Source: a phage
Sequence record: MZ956763.1
Length of the DNA: 64,000 nt
Reading direction: 5' to 3' (one strand)
Below, one piece after another: positions 5,853 through 45,941 of the stretch. Position 1 is the stretch's first letter. Each line of letters opens with the position of its first letter. Position numbers and translations under genes: made by a program. Under the pieces are notes generated by a model, which was given only the letters and a program-made list of their open reading frames with translations, was not told the origin of the DNA and did no database searches.

Positions 5853-6109
5853 TTTTACTCCCTCTAAAATCATTAACCTCATACATTACTGCAAAAAATT
5901 ATAAAAAGCAAGTTGACAATGTGCTTGACAAGGTGTTAATCTTTGCGAAGTGGGTTTTTACTTAAAAGGTTACTTAACAGTTTAACTATACAGATACTTT
6001 AAAACTCTTAAAAGATTATTTAATAGCTTTTAAAAAGCTTTAAAGTATAACGTATAGAATACGTTAAGATAAAAGATTAAAACTTAATAGTTACTTAAAA
6101 GAGGCTTAC

Positions 6110-33372: not shown

Positions 33373-33397
33373 AAGGCTGCTTCGGCGGCCTTTTTTA
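33373..33397 (+). terminator. intrinsic terminator after rIIB-like gene
   Basis: AAGGCTGCTTCGGCGGCCTTTTTT. Confidence 0.6.
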
Positions 33398-36708: not shown

Positions 36709-37494
36709 ATGGGTATTGTAAAAATTATTAACGGTGATATCTTTTCAGCATTTGATAAAGGTAAGTTTGACATCATCGGTCAGGGTTGCAACTGTATGAA
36801 TTTAATGGGTGCAGGTATCGCTGACAAGATTTCTAAACTTTACCCAAAAGCATATGAGACCGATACAGAAGTTTATCTATATGCAGGTGGCATTCGTCAC
36901 AAACCCTGTGAAAATTTACTGGGTAATTTCTCTGTAGCACGTTTAAAACAAGGTCGTATAGCTAACCTTTACACCCAACTTCATACTGGTAAAGATGCCC
37001 GATACAGTGCTTTAGAGTCATCTTTGAAGCAACTTAACAGATACTGTGAAGTCAATCAGTTGAAGAAAGTTGGTCTGCCTATGATTGGTGCAGGTATCGG
37101 TGGACTTGACCCTCAAGCTGTCACAGTTATCATTAATCAGGTGATGAAGGGTGTAGATGTATATCTGTATGTCTACGAGACAGAGATGTACAACGAGTTA
37201 CACTCAGGTTGGAAGAACTACTGTGAACCAGAATACTTTGCAGGTGTAGCAGTGTTCACAGATAACGCAGTTACCCTCTTCAGACGAAGAAAAGGTAAGA
37301 TACATCAAAGTAACCCTCCGGTTGAAAAGATGTCTCTAAGTAACGCTCTAGTTACCCACCTGTCGAAGAGCAATCACAGGATTGCAGTAACATTTGGCAG
37401 TGATGCAGATGCTTACATCTATGCAAGAACTGATGAGGATATCGAGACGATTTTCTCTTCACCAGAAGTTACCTTCTTAGACGCAAAGAACTAA
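36709..37494 (+). CDS. macro-domain protein (ADP-ribose binding/processing)
   Basis: N-terminal IINGDIF...IIGQGCNCMNLMGAGIADKI resembles macro-domain glycine-rich loop. Confidence 0.5.
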   Translation: MGIVKIINGDIFSAFDKGKFDIIGQGCNCMNLMGAGIADKISKLYPKAYETDTEVYLYAGGIRHKPCENLLGNFSVARLKQGRIANLYTQLHTGKDARYSALESSLKQLNRYCEVNQLKKVGLPMIGAGIGGLDPQAVTVIINQVMKGVDVYLYVYETEMYNELHSGWKNYCEPEYFAGVAVFTDNAVTLFRRRKGKIHQSNPPVEKMSLSNALVTHLSKSNHRIAVTFGSDADAYIYARTDEDIETIFSSPEVTFLDAKN

Positions 37495-37570
37495 GAAACT
37501 CTGTAAAATATTCACAATAGACTAAGCCTTTCTTATCTGGTAAATTTTTCAGGTAAGGAGGGCTTTTTTA

Positions 37571-37750
37571 TTTCAGAATTGTGCAGGTAGAGTTCTGTAG
37601 AGAAATCTGTAGAGAAAATTTTGAACTCCAAAGGGAAAATTCATTTTCAAGTTGTGCAGGTAATCTCCAAAGAGCTTTTTCATTTTCAAAACGTGCAGAG
37701 AAAAATCAGGTCGGGCAAGAAAAATCATTTTAGAATTGTGCAGGTAGGTG
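37571..37750 (+). repeat. four direct repeats, consensus about ATTTTCARAAtTGTGCAGGTA
   Basis: copies near 37571, 37643, 37681, 37725, plus duplicated CTGTAGAGAAA; upstream of small-gene array. Confidence 0.55.
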
Positions 37751-38003
37751 GGTGTAGGTGGGGATGTCGCCATTTCTCACAAGGCTACCACATCCGAAAA
37801 GAAAAGTCAACAGAAAAATTTGTAGCGGATTGAAAAATAATTCTTGATTTGTGTTCTGTTTTGTGGTATTCGCGCGCACCCGTTTCATTACATTTTTGCC
37901 AAAAATATTTTTAAAATTTTTCTTGACTATTCGAACGGGGTTATCTAGTATTTGCATCAACGGGGCGACAAGCCCGATAGCCTTAAACTAGGAGAATCTA
38001 AAA

Positions 38004-38210
38004 ATGCTATACGGTCGTGAATTGATGGTTACAACTAACGTTAACACAAATGTAAAACGTTTTTACATGCAAATTTGTGGCGTATGGTCTAGAATATCAG
38101 AGGCTGACTATTGCAACTATGTAGAAACGGCAATCAACTCTGATTGCTACCTTACAAGGAATACAAGAAAGCACATAAGACAGACAGCAGTTTACTACTA
38201 CGATATCTAA
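38004..38210 (+). CDS. small hypothetical protein (array gene 1)
   Basis: ORF preceded by conserved leader CCTTAAACTAGGAGAATCTAAAAATG. Confidence 0.5.
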   Translation: MLYGRELMVTTNVNTNVKRFYMQICGVWSRISEADYCNYVETAINSDCYLTRNTRKHIRQTAVYYYDI

Positions 38211-38298
38211 TAAAGTACTTTACAAGGGGCTTAAAAGTTGATATCTTAAGCCCCAGATAAAGAGCTTTATCAACAACCTTAAACTAGGAGATTCAAAA
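38211..38298 (+). repeat. class-1 intergenic leader repeat (representative copy)
   Basis: TAAAGTACTTTACAAGGGGCTTA..TAAGCCCCAGATAAAGAGCTTTA..CTAAACTAGGAGATTCAAAAATG; copies also at about 38680-38769, 39028-39115, 40096-40180, 40890-40976. Confidence 0.6.
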
Positions 38299-38679
38299 AT
38301 GGCATATCGTGCACCTAAATTCATCAATAAAGACAATTTCCGCAATGCACTGGAAAAATCACTTGATGAGAATTTTACAGGTCGGGTTATTGTTGTACAC
38401 GCATTCAATTTTAAGTATGATATTAACGGGAATAAAATCAACCATTACACGGCAACCATGTTAGATGGTGCGCTTTCAAGTGAAAAAGCCGTACTGAATG
38501 CACTTGCTGGACGTGGTAAAAACCTGATAAAATGCAATAAGAGACGTTATCAGGGCGGCGCATATGGTTACGATGATGCTGTTTATCATCTTGAGAATAT
38601 GGGCTATTCAGTGGAAAAAGCTGGAGCGCCGCAAATCATTGGTAGCGATGGTTATGTAACAATTTTCAAAATTAAATAA
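38299..38679 (+). CDS. small hypothetical protein (array gene 2)
   Basis: conserved leader and SD. Confidence 0.55.
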   Translation: MAYRAPKFINKDNFRNALEKSLDENFTGRVIVVHAFNFKYDINGNKINHYTATMLDGALSSEKAVLNALAGRGKNLIKCNKRRYQGGAYGYDDAVYHLENMGYSVEKAGAPQIIGSDGYVTIFKIK

Positions 38680-38769
38680 TAAAGTACTTTACAGGGGGCT
38701 TATAGTTCGATAAAGTAAGCCCCAGATAAAGAGCTTTACCACTAAATCCTAAATTGGAGAATCTGAAAA

Positions 38770-39027
38770 ATGGCTATTATCAAAAACGTTGTAGTTCCTG
38801 CAAAAACTCGTGATGACGCTCGCGTTATGGCTAAAAAGTTATGTGGGAGAGTGGTTGACAACGGGAAACAATCTGCTGTAAGATGGGGTGTAAAGGTTGA
38901 TAAACATTTAACCTTAAAACGTAGTTCAAACAACCTTTTTAAAGGTGTAAAATCACTCGGTAAAGTGAACGTTTTTACCAAAAAAGGTTATAAAATGCAC
39001 TTATCATTAACTGGCAATTTAATCTGA
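38770..39027 (+). CDS. small hypothetical protein (array gene 3)
   Basis: conserved leader and SD. Confidence 0.5.
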   Translation: MAIIKNVVVPAKTRDDARVMAKKLCGRVVDNGKQSAVRWGVKVDKHLTLKRSSNNLFKGVKSLGKVNVFTKKGYKMHLSLTGNLI

Positions 39028-39115
39028 TAAAGTACTTTACAAGGGGCTTAAAAGTTGATATCTTAAGCCCCAGATAAAGAGCTTTACCACTAAATCCTAA
39101 ACTGGAGATTCAAAA

Positions 39116-39412
39116 ATGAAATTATCAAATAAAGTTAGGGAAAACCTTAGCAAATTACTCAATAAAATTGATTTTATCGAGACATCAAGAAATAGTCATG
39201 ATGTTATGGAATGGTTACACGGCAAAATAAAAGGCCGTCGTGTGGTGATTTGCTTATGGAATAGTTGCAGGGAGTATAAAAAACCTGTATTACAAGTTAA
39301 TATATACGATAATACTTTTAAAAGCCCTGTAAAGTCTAAAAGCGATTTATTAGAATCTTATGAGATATCTGTAAATGGTAAAGTATCACGTAAAGAGGTA
39401 ACACCATGCTAA
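39116..39412 (+). CDS. small hypothetical protein (array gene 4)
   Basis: conserved leader and SD. Confidence 0.5.
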   Translation: MKLSNKVRENLSKLLNKIDFIETSRNSHDVMEWLHGKIKGRRVVICLWNSCREYKKPVLQVNIYDNTFKSPVKSKSDLLESYEISVNGKVSRKEVTPC

Positions 39413-39738
39413 TGACTGGCATCACCGCAATCATAGCCATTATAGCACTTTATAAGGCATATAAAGCCTATAATCTGGCAAGTAAGGCAATCACGCAGCA
39501 GGTTAGCAATAGCCTTGTAGAGAGCTTTCTAGGGCGCCTCAGTGATGAGCAAATAAAGCGGCTAGAGATGAGCTTCAGATATAAAGCGAAAACCTATCAG
39601 ATAAGTGACATCTTCAAAGATGATTTTCAGCTTGTCGATGATTATAATGCTCTGATAAATGCTTTAAATATCAGTGACTTAAAAGACTACTACGCTGTAA
39701 TTGTTCAAGAACTGAGCAAACGAAAACAAAATGCTTGA
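39406..39738 (+). CDS. small hypothetical membrane protein
   Basis: 110 aa with N-terminal TM-like segment; translationally coupled to previous gene, lacks the conserved leader. Confidence 0.45.
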   Translation: MLMTGITAIIAIIALYKAYKAYNLASKAITQQVSNSLVESFLGRLSDEQIKRLEMSFRYKAKTYQISDIFKDDFQLVDDYNALINALNISDLKDYYAVIVQELSKRKQNA

Positions 39739-39822
39739 CACTGGTTTTTAGATAGATTAAATTACACATCAACGGGGGGCGATAACCCCACTACATAAAG
39801 CCCTTAAACTAGGAGATTCAAA

Positions 39823-40095
39823 ATGTATACTACTAACAACGGTCGCACCTTAAACGTAACCCTACGCCACTATGTAAACGGGGTGATGCACTTCGAGGAT
39901 TTACGGGCTGAACAGCATATTTTGGATTGGCAACTTGCAGGACTCCAAAAAACTGCTACAGGATACGGGAAAAAGATTTCAACTAGTTGGAAAGTATACT
40001 ACGAGGGACGTTTGCGCAGAATTTATCAAGATGTGTACAGTAATAGCGCATCAAGTTACATCATGGTAAAAGGTAAAAAACTGCATTTAGTATAA
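39823..40095 (+). CDS. small hypothetical protein (array gene 5)
   Basis: promoter-hairpin-SD leader. Confidence 0.5.
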   Translation: MYTTNNGRTLNVTLRHYVNGVMHFEDLRAEQHILDWQLAGLQKTATGYGKKISTSWKVYYEGRLRRIYQDVYSNSASSYIMVKGKKLHLV

Positions 40096-40180
40096 AGTAC
40101 TTTACAAGGGGCTTATAGTTCGATAAAGTAAACCCCAGATAAAGAGCTTTACCACTAAATCCTAAATTGGAGATTCAAAA

Positions 40181-40585
40181 ATGGCTATTAATAACCGTGA
40201 ATTATCAATCTTAAAAGCACGTTTGACCGTCAACCGGATTAATGTTATTACATCATCAGCCCCAGACGAAACACTGCAAAACATTATTGGGAAGATTCAA
40301 AGTGTTATCTTAGACGTTGAAAGCGTAAAAAACTCACTGGCTGACGTTGCAGCAGGTATCACGCTAGACGGTGCACAATATGAAATGACCGACATGTTAG
40401 GCAAATCTAAGGTAATTAATAGGGAGTTAGATTTGAAAATGTTTCGTTTTGCTGTTAAAGTGTGGCTATCTGTCGAGTATGACGCAAATTTTGCAATCGC
40501 TGACTTTTTTGCAACATGGTTGCAACGTAATTTAACAAATCACGATTTTCGTGATATCTGCGATGTAATTTACGCAGAACTATAA
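40181..40585 (+). CDS. small hypothetical protein (array gene 6)
   Basis: conserved leader and SD. Confidence 0.55.
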   Translation: MAINNRELSILKARLTVNRINVITSSAPDETLQNIIGKIQSVILDVESVKNSLADVAAGITLDGAQYEMTDMLGKSKVINRELDLKMFRFAVKVWLSVEYDANFAIADFFATWLQRNLTNHDFRDICDVIYAEL

Positions 40586-40596
40586 AATTTCTCTTG

Positions 40597-40685
40597 ATTT
40601 TGTTTTTTAAAGCAAGTAAATTACTAATCAACGGGAGGTCATCACCTACCCACTACATAAAACCCTTAAACTAGGAGATTCTAAA
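40597..40685 (+). promoter_or_regulatory. class-2 leader of small-gene array: promoter, 5'UTR hairpin and SD (representative copy)
   Basis: TTGATT, 17 bp, TAAATT then TCAACGGGAGG...CCTACCC hairpin then CTTAAACTAGGAGATTCTAAAATG; similar copies end at about 39822, 41907, 42468, 43064, 43393. Confidence 0.5.
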
Positions 40686-40889
40686 ATGGCTATTATTAAC
40701 GGTTTAAACATTGAGACTACTCACATCAAAGATATCAAAGTCGGTGATATAGTCCTTTTTCACGGCGTAGAAAAAACCGTCACGGCGAAAGATATCAAGG
40801 AGGATTCATTCATGGGCCGAACCCTCTTCGGTGATTCCTATTGCTTAGGTTACCTTGCAGTTTTAAAAGTTGTCAAAAATAATCGTTAA
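40686..40889 (+). CDS. small hypothetical protein (array gene 7)
   Basis: promoter-hairpin-SD leader. Confidence 0.5.
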   Translation: MAIINGLNIETTHIKDIKVGDIVLFHGVEKTVTAKDIKEDSFMGRTLFGDSYCLGYLAVLKVVKNNR

Positions 40890-40976
40890 AGTACTTTACA
40901 AGGGGCTTATAGTTCGATAAAGTAAGCCCCAGATAAAGAGCTTTACCACTCAATCCTTAAACTAGGAGATTCAAAA

Positions 40977-41519
40977 ATGAAATGCTTTCACGGTACTACT
41001 CAAGAAAACTTCATCAACCTGATTAATAACGGTGATAAGCCATCAGGTGCATGGAATTGTTCGGATATGGACGGCAATTTTTACGTGTATCCAGAGAATA
41101 AAATCTATGGCGACGATGAGGAAGAGATAACATCTGAAGGCATCCAGCAAGCGTTAGGCAATGCCACTATCACGGCAGCTTTCCAGATGAAAACCCAAAA
41201 TATTGTTATCTTAGAACTTGATATCCCAGAGGATGACCTGAATGATGATTATTCTTGCGATAATATGTCTGGCGTAGCAAGTTTTACAGAATACTTCGAT
41301 TTGAATTGGATTAAAAAGGTTTACGTAACTGAGTTTAATGCGATGTTTTCGCCTTTTTGTCTTCCTTCATTGGATAACCCAAATTTAAACTATCTTGACG
41401 AGTCTCTGGAACTTCTTGCTAAAAGTGTTCAACAGTCGGACAGTATTCAGGTTTTTTGTGACATCATGGATACACTAACGGGAAACATCGCAGAAGAGGA
41501 TTTAAAGAGCTTTTTTTAA
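40977..41519 (+). CDS. hypothetical acidic protein (array gene 8)
   Basis: 180 aa; conserved leader. Confidence 0.55.
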   Translation: MKCFHGTTQENFINLINNGDKPSGAWNCSDMDGNFYVYPENKIYGDDEEEITSEGIQQALGNATITAAFQMKTQNIVILELDIPEDDLNDDYSCDNMSGVASFTEYFDLNWIKKVYVTEFNAMFSPFCLPSLDNPNLNYLDESLELLAKSVQQSDSIQVFCDIMDTLTGNIAEEDLKSFF

Positions 41520-41585
41520 AAACCTATGCAATCACCTTATAAACACTAATCAGCCCCTTACAGGGGCTTTTAAGGGGCTTAAATC

Positions 41586-41819
41586 ATGCTTATAACCGTT
41601 TATCTTATCCTTTCTATTTGTAATGGCCATTCATGTGATTTTAAAGGGCTTGAGGAGTTCACAGGAAGTAAAGAAAATGCTGTTCAGGTCTGTCAGATAG
41701 CAAGGCAAGACTACCCCGCCAGTGATGACATACAATGTTATTTTAAGACAGAAGATGAAGATGGTATCTATTTCGATAGTGTAGACGGTCAATATGAAAT
41801 AATTATAGAAAAAGACTAG
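41586..41819 (+). CDS. small hypothetical Cys-containing protein
   Basis: 77 aa ORF, no conserved leader. Confidence 0.4.
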   Translation: MLITVYLILSICNGHSCDFKGLEEFTGSKENAVQVCQIARQDYPASDDIQCYFKTEDEDGIYFDSVDGQYEIIIEKD

Positions 41820-41907
41820 ACAAGCCTGATAAAAATCTGTAAATTGTCAATCAACGGGAGGGATGACCTCCCAACTAAACAAAGTCCTTAAACTAGGAGA
41901 TTCAAAA

Positions 41908-42249
41908 ATGGCTTATGTAACCGTAATTACCAATAAAGAAGATTCATCTTGGTCAACTCAAGTAAGTGACAAGATGTCACCTATGCAGTGCCTAAAATAC
42001 TTTGAGCAATGGAACAAAGGTGAGGAAACAAGCCCCTTTCAAGTAATGCAGATTATTCATACAGACAACGAAGGGAATAAAACTGTTTTGAATAGTGAGT
42101 ACTATGCAACCAGATTAGAAACGAGAAGTAAAGCAATGAAGCTCTTACGTGAATCCGGTTATTCTCATATTGCCGCGCTAATCTGGGATGACCTCCTAAA
42201 AAGTCAGCGTATCAGCTATGTAAAACCTGAAAAAATATTCATCAGTTAA
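41908..42249 (+). CDS. small hypothetical protein (array gene 9)
   Basis: start at ATG directly after conserved leader; track ORF begins upstream inside leader. Confidence 0.5.
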   Translation: MAYVTVITNKEDSSWSTQVSDKMSPMQCLKYFEQWNKGEETSPFQVMQIIHTDNEGNKTVLNSEYYATRLETRSKAMKLLRESGYSHIAALIWDDLLKSQRISYVKPEKIFIS

Positions 42250-42468
42250 TCAATAACTTACAAAAAACTTTTAAAAAAATGTTGACAATCCCTCTTGACA
42301 TTGGTAACTTTGTTCGAGGGGGCTTATCTAAAAGGGATTCACTTAAAAGATTCTTTATAGATAAGCTCAAAAATTGCTTGCAATCAGCTATCAAAACAAG
42401 TAAATTACTAATCAACGGGAGGGATAACCTCCCCACTAAGTAAAGTCCTTAAACTAGGAGATTCAAAA

Positions 42469-42999
42469 ATGAACAAGTTCAAAGCTATCAACTTCATTCG
42501 TTCAAATAGTGTTATGTCTAAGCCTGTTAAAGACACCTATGAATTTCGTTGTAATGGTGTACACTTTGCAACCATCACTAAATCAGAAAACGGGGCTTAT
42601 TACATTCATCGTCGTAATGTTGCAACCGTTGTAGTCTCTCACTTTATGCAAGCCGTTGCGGAACTCCTCCCGATGTTTTTAGGGCTTTACTTAGATGAGT
42701 GTAAAAACGTTCACAATCACGTTAAAAACCTTTTAAACAGTTATAAAATGGCTTATGAACGTTCTATCAAGTCCTTAAACAAGTTCTATAAAGCCCCTGT
42801 AAATACTGTTTCAATGGCCTACGCTGCAAATGGTGAAAGAGTAAGCCTATCCGATGTGGAAGATATCGAGCTTTACGACCATCGTCCTAACGGTTACTCT
42901 CAGACCCTCGGTGAAGGTTTATCATTCAATATCAAGAACTTAGAAAAAACTTTAAAAGATATTGAAAAAGATATTGACGAGACAATCAAAAATCTGTAA
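42469..42999 (+). CDS. hypothetical protein (array gene 10)
   Basis: 176 aa; conserved leader. Confidence 0.55.
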   Translation: MNKFKAINFIRSNSVMSKPVKDTYEFRCNGVHFATITKSENGAYYIHRRNVATVVVSHFMQAVAELLPMFLGLYLDECKNVHNHVKNLLNSYKMAYERSIKSLNKFYKAPVNTVSMAYAANGERVSLSDVEDIELYDHRPNGYSQTLGEGLSFNIKNLEKTLKDIEKDIDETIKNL

Positions 43000-43064
43000 A
43001 TTACTAATCAACGGGAGGGATGACCTCCCTACTAAATAAAGTCCTTAAACTAGGAGTTATCAAG

Positions 43065-43328
43065 ATGGAAAACGTAGAATTAACCACACTTTTACAAATT
43101 GCAACCGACAAAGAAAACGTAGCATTAATTCACCGCATCGAAAGTGATTTGTTCAATGGTGAAATCATCAAAGAGTCTTACGAAGTTGTCGGATTCAAAG
43201 ATGGTAAAACGTTTGGATTCTTTGACCTCGAAAAAGGCAACGCTATTACAAAATATGATGTTNTATCTTGTGAGATTCTTACAAAATACAACGAAAAAAG
43301 GCTTGCAACATACGCNAACATGCAGTAA
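43065..43328 (+). CDS. small hypothetical protein (array gene 11)
   Basis: start after conserved leader; contains ambiguous bases (N) at 43263 and 43316. Confidence 0.45.
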   Translation: MENVELTTLLQIATDKENVALIHRIESDLFNGEIIKESYEVVGFKDGKTFGFFDLEKGNAITKYDVXSCEILTKYNEKRLATYXNMQ

Positions 43329-43393
43329 ATTACTAATCAACGGGAGGGATGACCTCCNTACTAAATAAAACCNTTAAACTAGGAGATTCAAAA

Positions 43394-43642
43394 ATGGCAA
43401 CTATCCGCGCAACCGTTAACNAATTNNGCTTCTACTCTCTGGATGTTAAATTTGACCTTGTGGGCACTGATAACGCCTTTGAAATGGTGAAAGGTCTTAT
43501 CAGTCAGACCATCAAAGACTATAATCCTTCTGATGAGTTCTGGAAAGAAACAAAACAGGAAGTTCTTAAAGATGGTTATTCTTTTCACTATTGGGGTGAA
43601 AAAATTGTCTCTCTGTACTACGATAAAGAAGGCACTAACTAA
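43394..43642 (+). CDS. small hypothetical protein (array gene 12)
   Basis: start after conserved leader; Ns at 43421 and 43426-43427; followed by terminator. Confidence 0.45.
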   Translation: MATIRATVNXXXFYSLDVKFDLVGTDNAFEMVKGLISQTIKDYNPSDEFWKETKQEVLKDGYSFHYWGEKIVSLYYDKEGTN

Positions 43643-43680
43643 ACGCCGCAGCGGGGCTAAATAGCCCCAGATACCTTTAC

Positions 43681-43707
43681 AGCCCCTCTGAATAGGGGCT
43701 TTTTTAC
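43681..43707 (+). terminator. intrinsic terminator closing small-gene array
   Basis: AGCCCCTCTGAATAGGGGCTTTTTT. Confidence 0.6.
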
Positions 43708-43710
43708 GTC

Positions 43711-45300
43711 TTATACAATCCTTATACAAACCCTTTCCCTTTCCTTCCTAGAATCTTACTAGACCTTAAAAGCAATAACTCTATAGTCTACTCTATAGCC
43801 TTTTATCAAATCAACTTAAATATAAGCCCATAACCCGAAAGGGAAGGGCAACCATTTAAACGCTCTATAAAGCCCTATAACAACCTTATTAACCCAACTT
43901 AAGGGATTGCATTATCTCACCCTTAAAAGCCCTTTATAAAGCTTCCTAGAGCCTTAAAAGAATCTTATAAGGGTGTAAGCTTTATTATCTCGTTAGCTAT
44001 CTTGTGAATAACTAAAAAGGGCTATGAGATAGATTCTATCGAATCCTATTGTTAGTGTCTTAAAAGTATGTTATAGGGGCTATGAAGTAGCTTAAAAGTT
44101 GCTTAAAAGTTACGTAAAAGAGGTTATAAAGTTACGTAAATGCTAGCCCCCTTAACATTTTCTTAACAATTTCTTAACAATCCCTACATAGTTATGCTTT
44201 TAAGGCACTTGTTAGCAACTTGTTAGCCCCTTGTTAAATCTCTGTTAAGACCACGTAAAAGCCTTGTAAGAGTCTTTGACATAGCCTTAAAAGCTCCTGT
44301 AAAGCCCTATAAAGAGCTATCCATACAGTTGAGGGGTAGATACTAGGAAGAGACTTAAAAGGGCTTATAAGGGGCTATAGAGAGCTTTTAAGAGATATGT
44401 TTAGAGATTCACTAAGAGGAAAGGGAATGATAAGAAAAGAGATAGTGACCATGTTAATAGCTTGTTAAAAAGATTAAACACTTGTTAGGAACTTGTTAAT
44501 TATCTTTACAAAATAACCCTTAAAAATTAACTTGTTAGCTCTTGTTAGTCATCTGTTAAGATTCTGTAAAGCCTATTCAGTACTTGTTAGAAAACTGTTA
44601 CAACCTTGTTAGTTCTGTTAAGAATATGTTAAGACCTCTGAAGAGATGTTAAAGAGATGTAGCAACTGTTAAGAGATTGTTAATGATATTTTAAAATTTT
44701 GCAAAGGGGGTGTTAAGGGGCTGTTAAGGGCTACCAAGCAGATATACATCCTAATCAGATATTTTTGAGTTCCTTCAAAGACCCTAAAAAATGACTTGAT
44801 AGTCCTATTTTATAAAAATTTTAAAATTCTGAATAATTACCTATACAGTCTTCTAAAAATACAGGCATAAACAGGCTTATAAGATACCTTGTTAGTACCG
44901 TGTTAGACCTTGTGAGATAAGGTCTGTAAAGATATTCCTGTTAAGTTTGCTAAAACAGTCTATATAGAGGCTTAGTAATACCTAGTGAACATCTATAGAG
45001 GGTATCATAGGTAACCTAGAGATTAAGAGGTGTATAGGAGCTTCTAAGAGGGTATAGAGAGGTGGTTAAGGTGATTGTATAGGTTGTTAAGAAGGCTTGT
45101 TAGGAGAGTGTTTAGAAGGCTTGTTAGAGGGCTAGTTAGAAGGGTTATACAGAGGGGCTATTAAGACCACTAGATAGTTACTAAGATACTATATAGTACT
45201 ATATAACTATATAGAGAGTAAGATTAAGAAGGTTGTTAAGAAGGATAGATATTTTATTCACATATGATGGTGACCCAGAGGTTGGGACAACCGATAAAAT
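43711..45300. repeat. ORF-free region dense in degenerate short motifs (CTTGTTAG, CTGTTAAG, CTTAAAAG, CTATAAAG)
   Basis: about 1.6 kb with no ORF of 60 aa or more in any frame; dozens of motif copies at irregular spacing; between convergent gene blocks. Confidence 0.6.
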
Positions 45301-45312
45301 TTTATAAAAATT

Positions 45313-45338
45313 AAAAAGCCCCCAATTAAGGAGGCTCT
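45313..45338 (-). terminator. intrinsic terminator closing minus-strand block
   Basis: minus strand reads AGAGCCTCCTTAATTGGGGGCTTTTT; same 23-nt core as terminator at 7365. Confidence 0.5.
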
Positions 45339-45347
45339 TAAGATATT

Positions 45348-45941
45348 TTAAATCAGTGTTTCCAGAACTGTTTTTAATGATGACTTGGTTGTCTGATAAA
45401 AATGAGTAAATCCATTGTTGTTATCAAATACCTGCATCATGATATCATCTCCCTTGATTGGGTACACTCGGATATCATAGTGGAAACCGTTAAAGACACA
45501 AGAACCACTACAGAATGCTCTAAAATCATCCACTGAGATATACTCTTCATGACCTGTGATTTTTATACAAACACCTTTACTCGGCCTCTTAGGGTTGATA
45601 TCTTCCATCACAGACATATTCTGCCCACCAAGAGATACCATAGTGACCACTTTACGGTTCTTCTGTTTAAAGTACATTTTAACTTTCTGTAAAGTGTCTT
45701 CATAGAACGGATAAGACTTCTCTACAAAGATTCCTTCTAATGGCTCTTTACCGTTTACAATACCTCTGGTATGACGTACTGAGAAGATAAGTTGCTCTAG
45801 TATGTCAAGGCTTTCTTCGGAGAGTGCTTCCCGAATATCATTCCAGTCAAGTACTAGGTAGTTACCTTCAACTTCTTTTAAGTTATCTTTTTCCATATCT
45901 ATCACGCCATTATCGTAAAACTTGGTAAGCTGGAACTGCAA
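45348..45941 (-). CDS. hypothetical protein
   Basis: 197 aa ORF; last gene of minus-strand block. Confidence 0.5.
   Translation of the reverse strand: MQFQLTKFYDNGVIDMEKDNLKEVEGNYLVLDWNDIREALSEESLDILEQLIFSVRHTRGIVNGKEPLEGIFVEKSYPFYEDTLQKVKMYFKQKNRKVVTMVSLGGQNMSVMEDINPKRPSKGVCIKITGHEEYISVDDFRAFCSGSCVFNGFHYDIRVYPIKGDDIMMQVFDNNNGFTHFYQTTKSSLKTVLETLI

Follow-up and report, generated by a model that had tools for sequence, protein, structure and literature searches.

Direct repeats that act as replication origins are known from several phages: the lambda origin has four iterons bound by the O protein, T4 has oriE with RepEB, and lactococcal and streptococcal phages carry non-coding arrays of this kind. 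The sopC centromere of the F plasmid consists of twelve 43-bp tandem repeats with inverted-repeat cores, is bound by a ParB-type dimer, and works with the sopA and sopB genes. Repeats of another sort are found in T4-type phages, in which promoter/stem-loop cassettes (PeSL) stand between small early genes. In phage T5, the first-step-transfer DNA makes up 7.9% of the genome and ends in a conserved untranslated repeat region (bioRxiv 10.1101/866236), while the ORFs of this segment are poorly conserved (bioRxiv 10.1101/866236). The T5 region, iss, contains inverted repeats, palindromes, and paired DnaA boxes (Davison, bioRxiv 10.1101/866236).

We compared these systems with an array of direct repeats in a 64,000-nt stretch of phage DNA (record MZ956763.1), here called the window. 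Many phages of Escherichia and Salmonella that belong to the genus Felixounavirus (myoviruses like Felix O1, ∼87 kb) are 92%–97% identical to the surroundings of the array, and the window is assigned to that genus. Some matching records bear unexpected names: those of Campylobacter phage A132 and of a Staphylococcus phage match Felixounavirus DNA, and PP892526.1 (phage I14.1) has a Tequintavirus taxonomy line yet is Felix O1-like at the array locus. Synteny is kept, running from a macro-domain "phosphatase" gene (36709–37494) through a gene-free 509 bp (37495–38003) to an array of small genes. An earlier note, made from the letters of the window, had described a non-coding stretch after a macro-domain gene, and both parts of that description hold: there is no credible gene in 37495–38003, and the upstream protein matches PF01661. 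In this protein, the Pfam match and the alignment with the Erwinia phage homologue cover only the first ∼160 residues. The C-terminal ∼100 residues belong to no family and have internal repeats in their DNA (37297/37327 and 37269/37350/37467); a homologue search with the last 102 aa returned nothing, and relatives with the macro domain alone exist (155–163 aa).

The terminator of the macro-domain gene is the element called t13 in the Felix O1 paper and is annotated as a terminator in the record of phage ASO1A; its T-run doubles as the A/T tract of the first repeat unit. On the other side, the small-gene array has ∼14 genes (38004–43642) and encodes no protein >180 aa. All 14 of its proteins fall into PHROGs families without known function, and Pfam and PHROGs recognized no initiator-like or DNA-binding protein among 18 flanking proteins. 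The last cassette of the small-gene array contains ambiguous bases (N) at about 43316, 43358, and 43374.

The pattern ATTTYMRRRWYGTGCAGRKA has exactly four matches in the 64 kb, at 37570, 37643, 37682, and 37727, all on the + strand, which bears out the four same-direction copies that had been claimed. The chance expectation is 0.15 matches per window, and none of 100 shuffles reached four. The minimal core, TYATT-N8-GTGCA, finds the four units and one stray match at 33395, against 0.44 expected in the 64-kb window. The repeat block spans 37568–37746 on the + strand, with GTGCA-to-GTGCA distances of 73, 39, and 45 bp, in line with the ∼40–70 bp first given. Also as first described, CTGTAGAGAAA is duplicated between copies (37595–37605 and 37607–37617). 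A related sequence, (G/T)GTAGAGAAA, stands after the first and last units of L139, a distant relative, and in Erwinia phages the last unit is followed by TAGAGAA.

The motif of the earlier note is present in the copies, but its length was understated, as the unit is really ∼37–40 bp. Each unit has a left arm (e.g., CTCCAAAGRG), a 5-nt A/T tract, and then TCATTTTCAAnnnGTGCAGGTA; the left arm takes the form of CTCCAAAGRG, GTCGGGCAAG, or the 3′ arm of the terminator. The core that follows the A/T tract is bipartite and asymmetric, TCAT-N9-GTGCA(G/T), 18–22 bp long, and in the window N9 is followed by GTGCAGGTA. R4 has almost the same sequence as unit 3 of Erwinia phage phiEa104. There are no further good motif copies in the complete 87.6-kb genome of UAB_Phi87. 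The units and their surroundings are listed in the table.

Table. Positions in the window of the repeat units (R1–R4) and of neighboring features
Feature	Position	Strand	Details
Rho-independent terminator of the macro-domain gene	37524–37569	+	Terminator scan; hairpin 37524–37565 plus T-run
R1	37550–37589	+	Core TTAT-N9-GTGCAGGTA at 37568–37589; left arm is the 3′ arm of the terminator
Two CTGTAGAGAAA copies in the long R1–R2 gap	37595–37617	+	12-bp period
R2	37626–37662	+	CTCCAAAGGG-AAAAT-TCAT-TTTCAAGTT-GTGCAGGTA
R3	37665–37701	+	CTCCAAAGAG-CTTTT-TCAT-TTTCAAAAC-GTGCAGAGA
R4	37710–37746	+	GTCGGGCAAG-AAAAA-TCAT-TTTAGAATT-GTGCAGGTA
Variable tract after R4	37747–37800	+	Diversity 0.324 (18 felixounaviruses)
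Near-invariant 48-bp block, AAAAGTCAAnAGAAAAATTTGTAGnG..AAAAATAATTCTTGA	37801–37848		Diversity 0.028
Sigma-70-type promoter P2 of the first small-array gene	37923–37951	+	TTGACT-17-TAGTAT; promoter scan
First small-array gene	38004–38210	+	68 aa; phrog_5293, no known function
Direct terminal repeat (physical genome ends)	44144–44737		Annotated terminal repeat of sister phage UAB_69 aligns here

Conservation in related phages had been named as the check, and the array was kept, with three to six copies in the same orientation, in seven of the seven lineages examined: Felixounavirus, Mooglevirus, Suspvirus, Kolesnikvirus, and the metagenomic lineages L139, L143, and L138. The more distant contigs were retrieved via homologues of the macro protein, and three of them, which represent these last lineages, carry the array. 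Between array-bearing lineages, the flanking proteins are 33%–45% identical or non-homologous. TCAT and GTGCA, 9 bp apart, are invariant in all seven, except that R1 of the window reads TTAT, and the units always point the same way as the flanking genes. L139 has four units (spacing 91, 35, and 45 bp), L143 five, L138 six, and a Si3-like lineage three. The R3–R4 spacing is always 45 bp, though the spacer sequence varies, and the R2–R3 spacing is 39–41 bp in the four genera with enterobacterial hosts and 35 bp in L139. In a sensitive DNA search, Erwinia phages (Kolesnikvirus) matched the window through the repeat block only; their macro protein is 44% identical to that of the window, and their next gene is unrelated.

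In relatives, the order of the module is terminator, array, C-rich tract, short conserved block, host-type promoter, and small genes. Between the macro gene and the array lie 0, 1, 4, or 5 genes, depending on the lineage; because this number differs, it is the non-coding module that is conserved as a unit, and not its linkage to the macro gene. IMG/VR was scanned for paired motifs and gave nothing comparable outside this phage group, and matches from elsewhere (e.g., L117 and L054) were set aside as chance or unrelated repeats.

Within the genus, nucleotide diversity was calculated from 18 distinct felixounaviruses. Third codon positions of the macro gene had a diversity of 0.139; the spacers had 0.060, the repeats 0.039 (3.5 times less than the codon positions), and the terminator 0.020. 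On this comparative evidence, the repeats are under purifying selection within Felixounavirus. Across lineages, three have GTGCATAG in place of GTGCAGGTA in every copy. Within a genome, the copies are alike in N9, in the left arm, and in the 3′ extension (GGTA or TAG), and all of these vary from lineage to lineage. We read this lineage-specific alikeness as concerted evolution.

Stop-free stretches run through the repeats on both strands, and a coding repeat was considered and rejected, as the frames differ among copies and genera. The unit spacings (37, 41, 73 bp, etc.) are not multiples of three, and the open stretches of the repeat region have no ribosome-binding site like the CCTTAAACTAGGAGA of true genes; short ORFs annotated over the repeats in some GenBank records are probably spurious. 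Searching the repeat region against Rfam gave a best E-value of 0.5, with all scores far below the gathering thresholds, and RNA folding compared with shuffled sequence gave no signal on either strand (z of −1.23 and −0.13). A scan with 16- to 18-bp spacing detected no sigma-70 promoter within 37566–37746 on either strand, and no suitably spaced TAnnnT was seen by eye. Nor did sigma-32, sigma-E, or MotA-type promoters match consistently, in a scan or by inspection. In a virulent phage, a site for partition is unlikely; the units have no internal inverted repeat, and there are no partition genes among the annotated genes of UAB_Phi87. The array does resemble sopC in its tandem ∼40-bp units, in having one (here putative) protein-binding core per unit, and in forming a single array, but its cores are asymmetric, no partition genes are seen, and the phage is virulent.

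The DNA between R4 and the first small gene has a structure of its own. The variable tract directly after R4 (37747–37800) exists as two alleles, a G-rich one (GGTGGGTGTAGGTGGGGATG...) in the window and about half of the felixounaviruses, and in its place a ∼35-nt polypyrimidine tract, CCCCTCTCCCCCTCTTACTCCCCC, in the other felixounaviruses and in the other genera. The G-rich allele often holds an extra GTGCAGGT half-site, and the C-rich allele is, in + strand RNA, a plausible candidate for a Rho loading site. Assemblies often break at this tract. Just downstream of R4, breaks occur in two GenBank records and in several metagenome contigs; we considered and rejected these as genome ends, as they are technical or stem from allelic variation in the C-rich tract (an assembly overlap of 77 nt, a Nextera adapter, a chimeric contig). 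Nextera adapter ends were seen in IMG/VR contig 3300045988_009833 (L021) and in Logan contig L137, and contig 3300045988_004180 (L025) is a chimera whose sequence beyond repeat 3 looks bacterial.

In the near-invariant block that follows, a leftward TTGACT (37810–37805) stands back-to-back with a rightward TTGATT (37844–37849), which starts in the block. In the window allele, the leftward hexamer has TGgTAGCCT 17 bp downstream; the rightward one has an odd −10 element, TATTCG or TAGTCG, without the final T. A consensus promoter scan passed neither hexamer. The block corresponds to two ATTGTTAA motifs in L138 and L143, which have ATTTGTTAA..GATTGTTAA in place of ATTTGTAG..GATTGAAA. The region 37801–37872 may be a divergent promoter pair, a function that we infer, or a second protein-binding site. 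Farther along, an A/T-rich, UP-like stretch (37895–37922) precedes P2, at whose position the ASO1A record annotates a promoter, and P2 resembles the class-2 cassettes of the small-gene array.

Between 38188 and 43400, the small-gene array is made of two classes of repeated inter-gene cassettes, at which relatives swap genes. One class (five copies, ∼116 nt) has TTTACA-17-TATCTT overlapping a GGGGCTTAA/TTAAGCCCC hairpin, the other (five copies, ∼82 nt) has a GGGAGG/CCTCCC hairpin at its 5′ side, and both end in the ribosome-binding site CCTTAAACTAGGAGA. The neighborhood is like the PeSL of T4-type phages, with small genes separated by repeated promoter-hairpin-RBS cassettes, and AAAGAGCTTT is common to these cassettes and the left arm of the repeat units. 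The four units themselves differ from PeSL in being without a promoter, a hairpin, a ribosome-binding site, or a gene behind them, and the core TCAT-N9-GTGCA is absent from the small-gene cassettes.

The physical ends of the genome lie beyond the small genes. A direct terminal repeat of 608 bp was mapped experimentally in UAB_Phi87 (PMC4837284), and in silico digestion of that genome with SpeI yields a 6568-bp fragment, which fits the published Bal31-sensitive fragments (4322 + 2819 − 608 = 6533; PMC4837284). Several GenBank records end at 44735. The terminal repeat is 6.4 kb downstream from R4, and the array is 7.0–7.2 kb from the right end, or ∼8% of the ∼87.6 kb; the array as terminal repeat was rejected, as the true repeat maps elsewhere (see the table). 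The whole 1.7 kb of the terminal-repeat region (43650–45350) has no genes. It is rich in YTGTTAR, with 16 same-strand copies in the terminal repeat (19 in the 44- to 45-kb bin), some of them exactly 11 bp apart (44209, 44220, 44231, and 44242), compared with ∼0.5 per kb elsewhere; this cluster is likely a recognition array for terminase or end processing. GC skew beside the terminal repeat is −0.54 on the left (43700–43900) and +0.5 to +0.6 on the right (44900–45300). Two matches to the DnaA box TTATTCACA lie in opposite orientation at 44003 and 45254, a count not above chance.

We consider it likely, on comparative grounds, that the repeats are a functional protein-binding array. Whereas the existence of the repeats, their uniqueness, their conservation across genera, and the selection on them are observed facts, protein binding is what we infer. 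The iteron-type reading is preferred because the array is at a single locus, has oriented, asymmetric, bipartite sites and conserved spacing, varies in copy number, and evolves in concert. The repeats would then be a cis-acting array of double-stranded DNA sites (iterons) for one sequence-specific DNA-binding protein, each site being a bipartite TCAT-N9-GTGCA(G/T) beside an A/T tract, and sites ∼35–47 bp apart would load a multi-protein complex over ∼180 bp. The binder is more likely encoded by the phage than by the host, because N9 and the flanks change together in all copies. The general idea of the earlier note, an iteron-like protein-binding array, gains strong comparative support; of the three uses it proposed, an origin is possible, partition is unlikely, and direct control of promoters is a poor fit. 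Operators lie at or near the promoter that they regulate, and here 97 bp separate the end of R4 from the nearest −35-like hexamer and 177 bp separate it from P2.

Among specific roles, we rank first that of a replication origin or initiator-loading site, as a tentative conjecture that we would not call probable. The bound complex, shielded by the terminator from upstream transcription, would mark the start of replication, and the polypurine/polypyrimidine tract and A/T-rich early promoters would flank it. As in iteron origins, at least three direct repeats of ∼17–22 bp lie at one locus, here as putative protein-binding sites. The likeness to the lambda, T4, and lactococcal origins extends to several same-orientation sites of ∼18–22 bp at one locus per genome, to a copy number that varies among relatives, to copies that evolve in concert, and to adjacent promoters and A/T-rich DNA (the stretch at 37895–37922 is 150 bp from R4). 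In contrast to plasmid and lambda iterons, whose period is usually 20–24 bp, the period here is longer (35–47 bp). The array also differs from iteron origins in lying outside the replication module, in having no recognized initiator nearby, and in that the adjacent DNA is not the most meltable.

Several measurements bear on these differences. The array is ∼27–34 kb from the polymerase and primase-helicase genes, which counts against an origin. An iteron origin would be expected to have its cognate initiator nearby, and none was found among the macro protein and its small neighbors with Pfam and PHROGs. The replisome consists of a T7-type primase-helicase (with Toprim and DnaB domains only) and PolA, and a replisome of the T7 type does not need iterons, a further point against an origin. 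GC skew shows no switch at the array and follows gene orientation. The best local 40-bp window of duplex stability is at the 0.7th percentile, but 100- to 200-bp windows are only at about the 5th. A stability minimum at the array was rejected, and this too counts against an origin, as stability is lower elsewhere (5.9–6.1 kb and on either side of the terminal repeat). In the whole window, the duplex is weakest at 5883–6109, where the DNA polymerase gene (− strand) and the genes that follow on the + strand diverge; this gap includes a 27-nt A/T-rich inverted repeat at 5994–6048. It is an alternative candidate for the origin, or for the divergent early promoters that the Felix O1 paper postulated.

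A second role, which we regard as doubtful, is that of a transcription boundary or control element, in which a protein bound to the array would be a roadblock or insulator behind the terminator, or a later silencer of the first early promoters. In the boundary version, the long upstream operon would be kept from reading into the terminal early-gene array. This would suit the position of the array, which in 7/7 lineages is between a terminator and the first sigma-70 promoter of individually promoted small genes, and its orientation, constant in all seven. Unit 1 overlaps the terminator T-run in four genera, although the array is separated from the terminator in L138, L143, and L139; in L143 and L138, genes are tightly packed upstream of the array and have promoter-sized gaps downstream. 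Expression points the same way, as ORFs 16 and 20–22 of the Felix O1 small-gene array peak at 5 min and ORF14 at 25 min (Felix O1 paper), but the RT-PCR was not strand-specific, and ORF14 is placed in this intergenic region presumptively, by its number alone. Against such a role, the sites are ∼100–300 bp upstream of promoters and not over them, and 10 or more other promoters of the small-gene array resemble P2 yet carry no motif copy. A different view of the binder, that the phage has recruited a host protein (DnaA or a nucleoid protein) to the array, seems unlikely to us. TCAT and GTGCA are constant in phages of different hosts, the T5 repeat region keeps clustered DnaA boxes, and in lineages of the GTGCAT type the reverse complement, CTATGCACA or TTATGCACA, agrees with the DnaA box TTATNCACA at 8–9 of nine positions. 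However, phages of E. coli, Salmonella, and Citrobacter read ACCTGCACA there (6/9), the consensus box TTWTNCACA is absent from 37495–38003, and the best-conserved half of the site, TCATTTT, is outside any DnaA box. No IHF or CRP site was matched by eye (not a formal scan), and the lineage-wide concerted changes better fit a co-evolving phage protein.

The remaining explanations concern the genome end and the history of the repeats. By analogy with the T5 injection stop, the array might bound a first-entering segment, the small-gene end entering first and pausing at the repeats until early proteins are made, a reading that we find quite improbable. We give very little credence to its two-stage form, in which the 7-kb end would enter first and the array, bound by a host or virion protein, would hold back the remaining 92%. 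We know of no report of two-step entry in Felix O1-type phages. The parallel is in the layout: as in T5, conserved non-coding repeats form the border of a terminal block whose early genes are small, are poorly conserved, and have host-type promoters. The array is ∼8% from the right end (cf. 7.9% in T5), which end enters first being an assumption; its non-coding repeats are conserved while the small genes are swapped among relatives, and these genes are early and have their own host-type promoters. On the other hand, there are only direct repeats here, with no inverted repeats or palindromes and no TTWTNCACA in 37495–38003. The T5 region lies in a terminal repeat of 10 kb and acts together with the A1 and A2 proteins, and neither feature was found here: the terminal repeat is 0.6 kb and 6.4 kb away, and none of the 14 small-array proteins is in a PHROG of known function (T5 A1 and A2 were not compared directly). 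That the array is a packaging site recognized by terminase is hardly credible, even though it is a single-locus, oriented direct-repeat array in a phage with fixed ends and no small terminase subunit is known for Felix O1 (Felix O1 paper); such a site would adjoin the terminal repeat, and the genome ends are 6.4–7.2 kb away, where the dense, oriented YTGTTAR motif of the terminal repeat itself is the better candidate. Finally, the repeats could be functionless debris left from tandem duplications, since decayed, of the terminator and the cassettes between genes, which we consider very improbable. Their left arm does resemble the 3′ arm of the terminator, GGAGGGCTTTTT, as well as AAAGAGCTTTACCA, which is 3′ of the hairpin in five cassettes of the small-gene array, and because of this double resemblance the units probably arose by local duplication. 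Yet neutral DNA would not keep three to six copies, the core, the orientation, and the spacing at 33%–45% protein identity, and a diversity 3.5-fold below that of third codon positions would be unexpected; after their duplication, the units were probably fixed by selection.

In the literature searched, we found no published description of these repeats and nothing on origins or iterons in the Felix O1-type group. They are missing from the Felix O1 genome paper, which catalogs terminator t13 and direct repeats ≥24 bp long, and they are also not mentioned in the papers on UAB_Phi87 (PMC4837284), Pr103Blw, and Bas63; the main text of the gene-essentiality paper on Bas63 gives no result for this intergenic region. 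Judged from the sequences compared here, the array appears to be a previously undescribed cis-element that is conserved subfamily-wide and beyond. As the best-conserved non-coding element beside the early region of Felix O1-type phages, it offers a concrete and cheap target. These phages are widely used in Salmonella typing, biocontrol, and therapy, and their engineering is under way (Bas63). When cargo is placed into the surrounding "non-essential" region, the array should stay intact.
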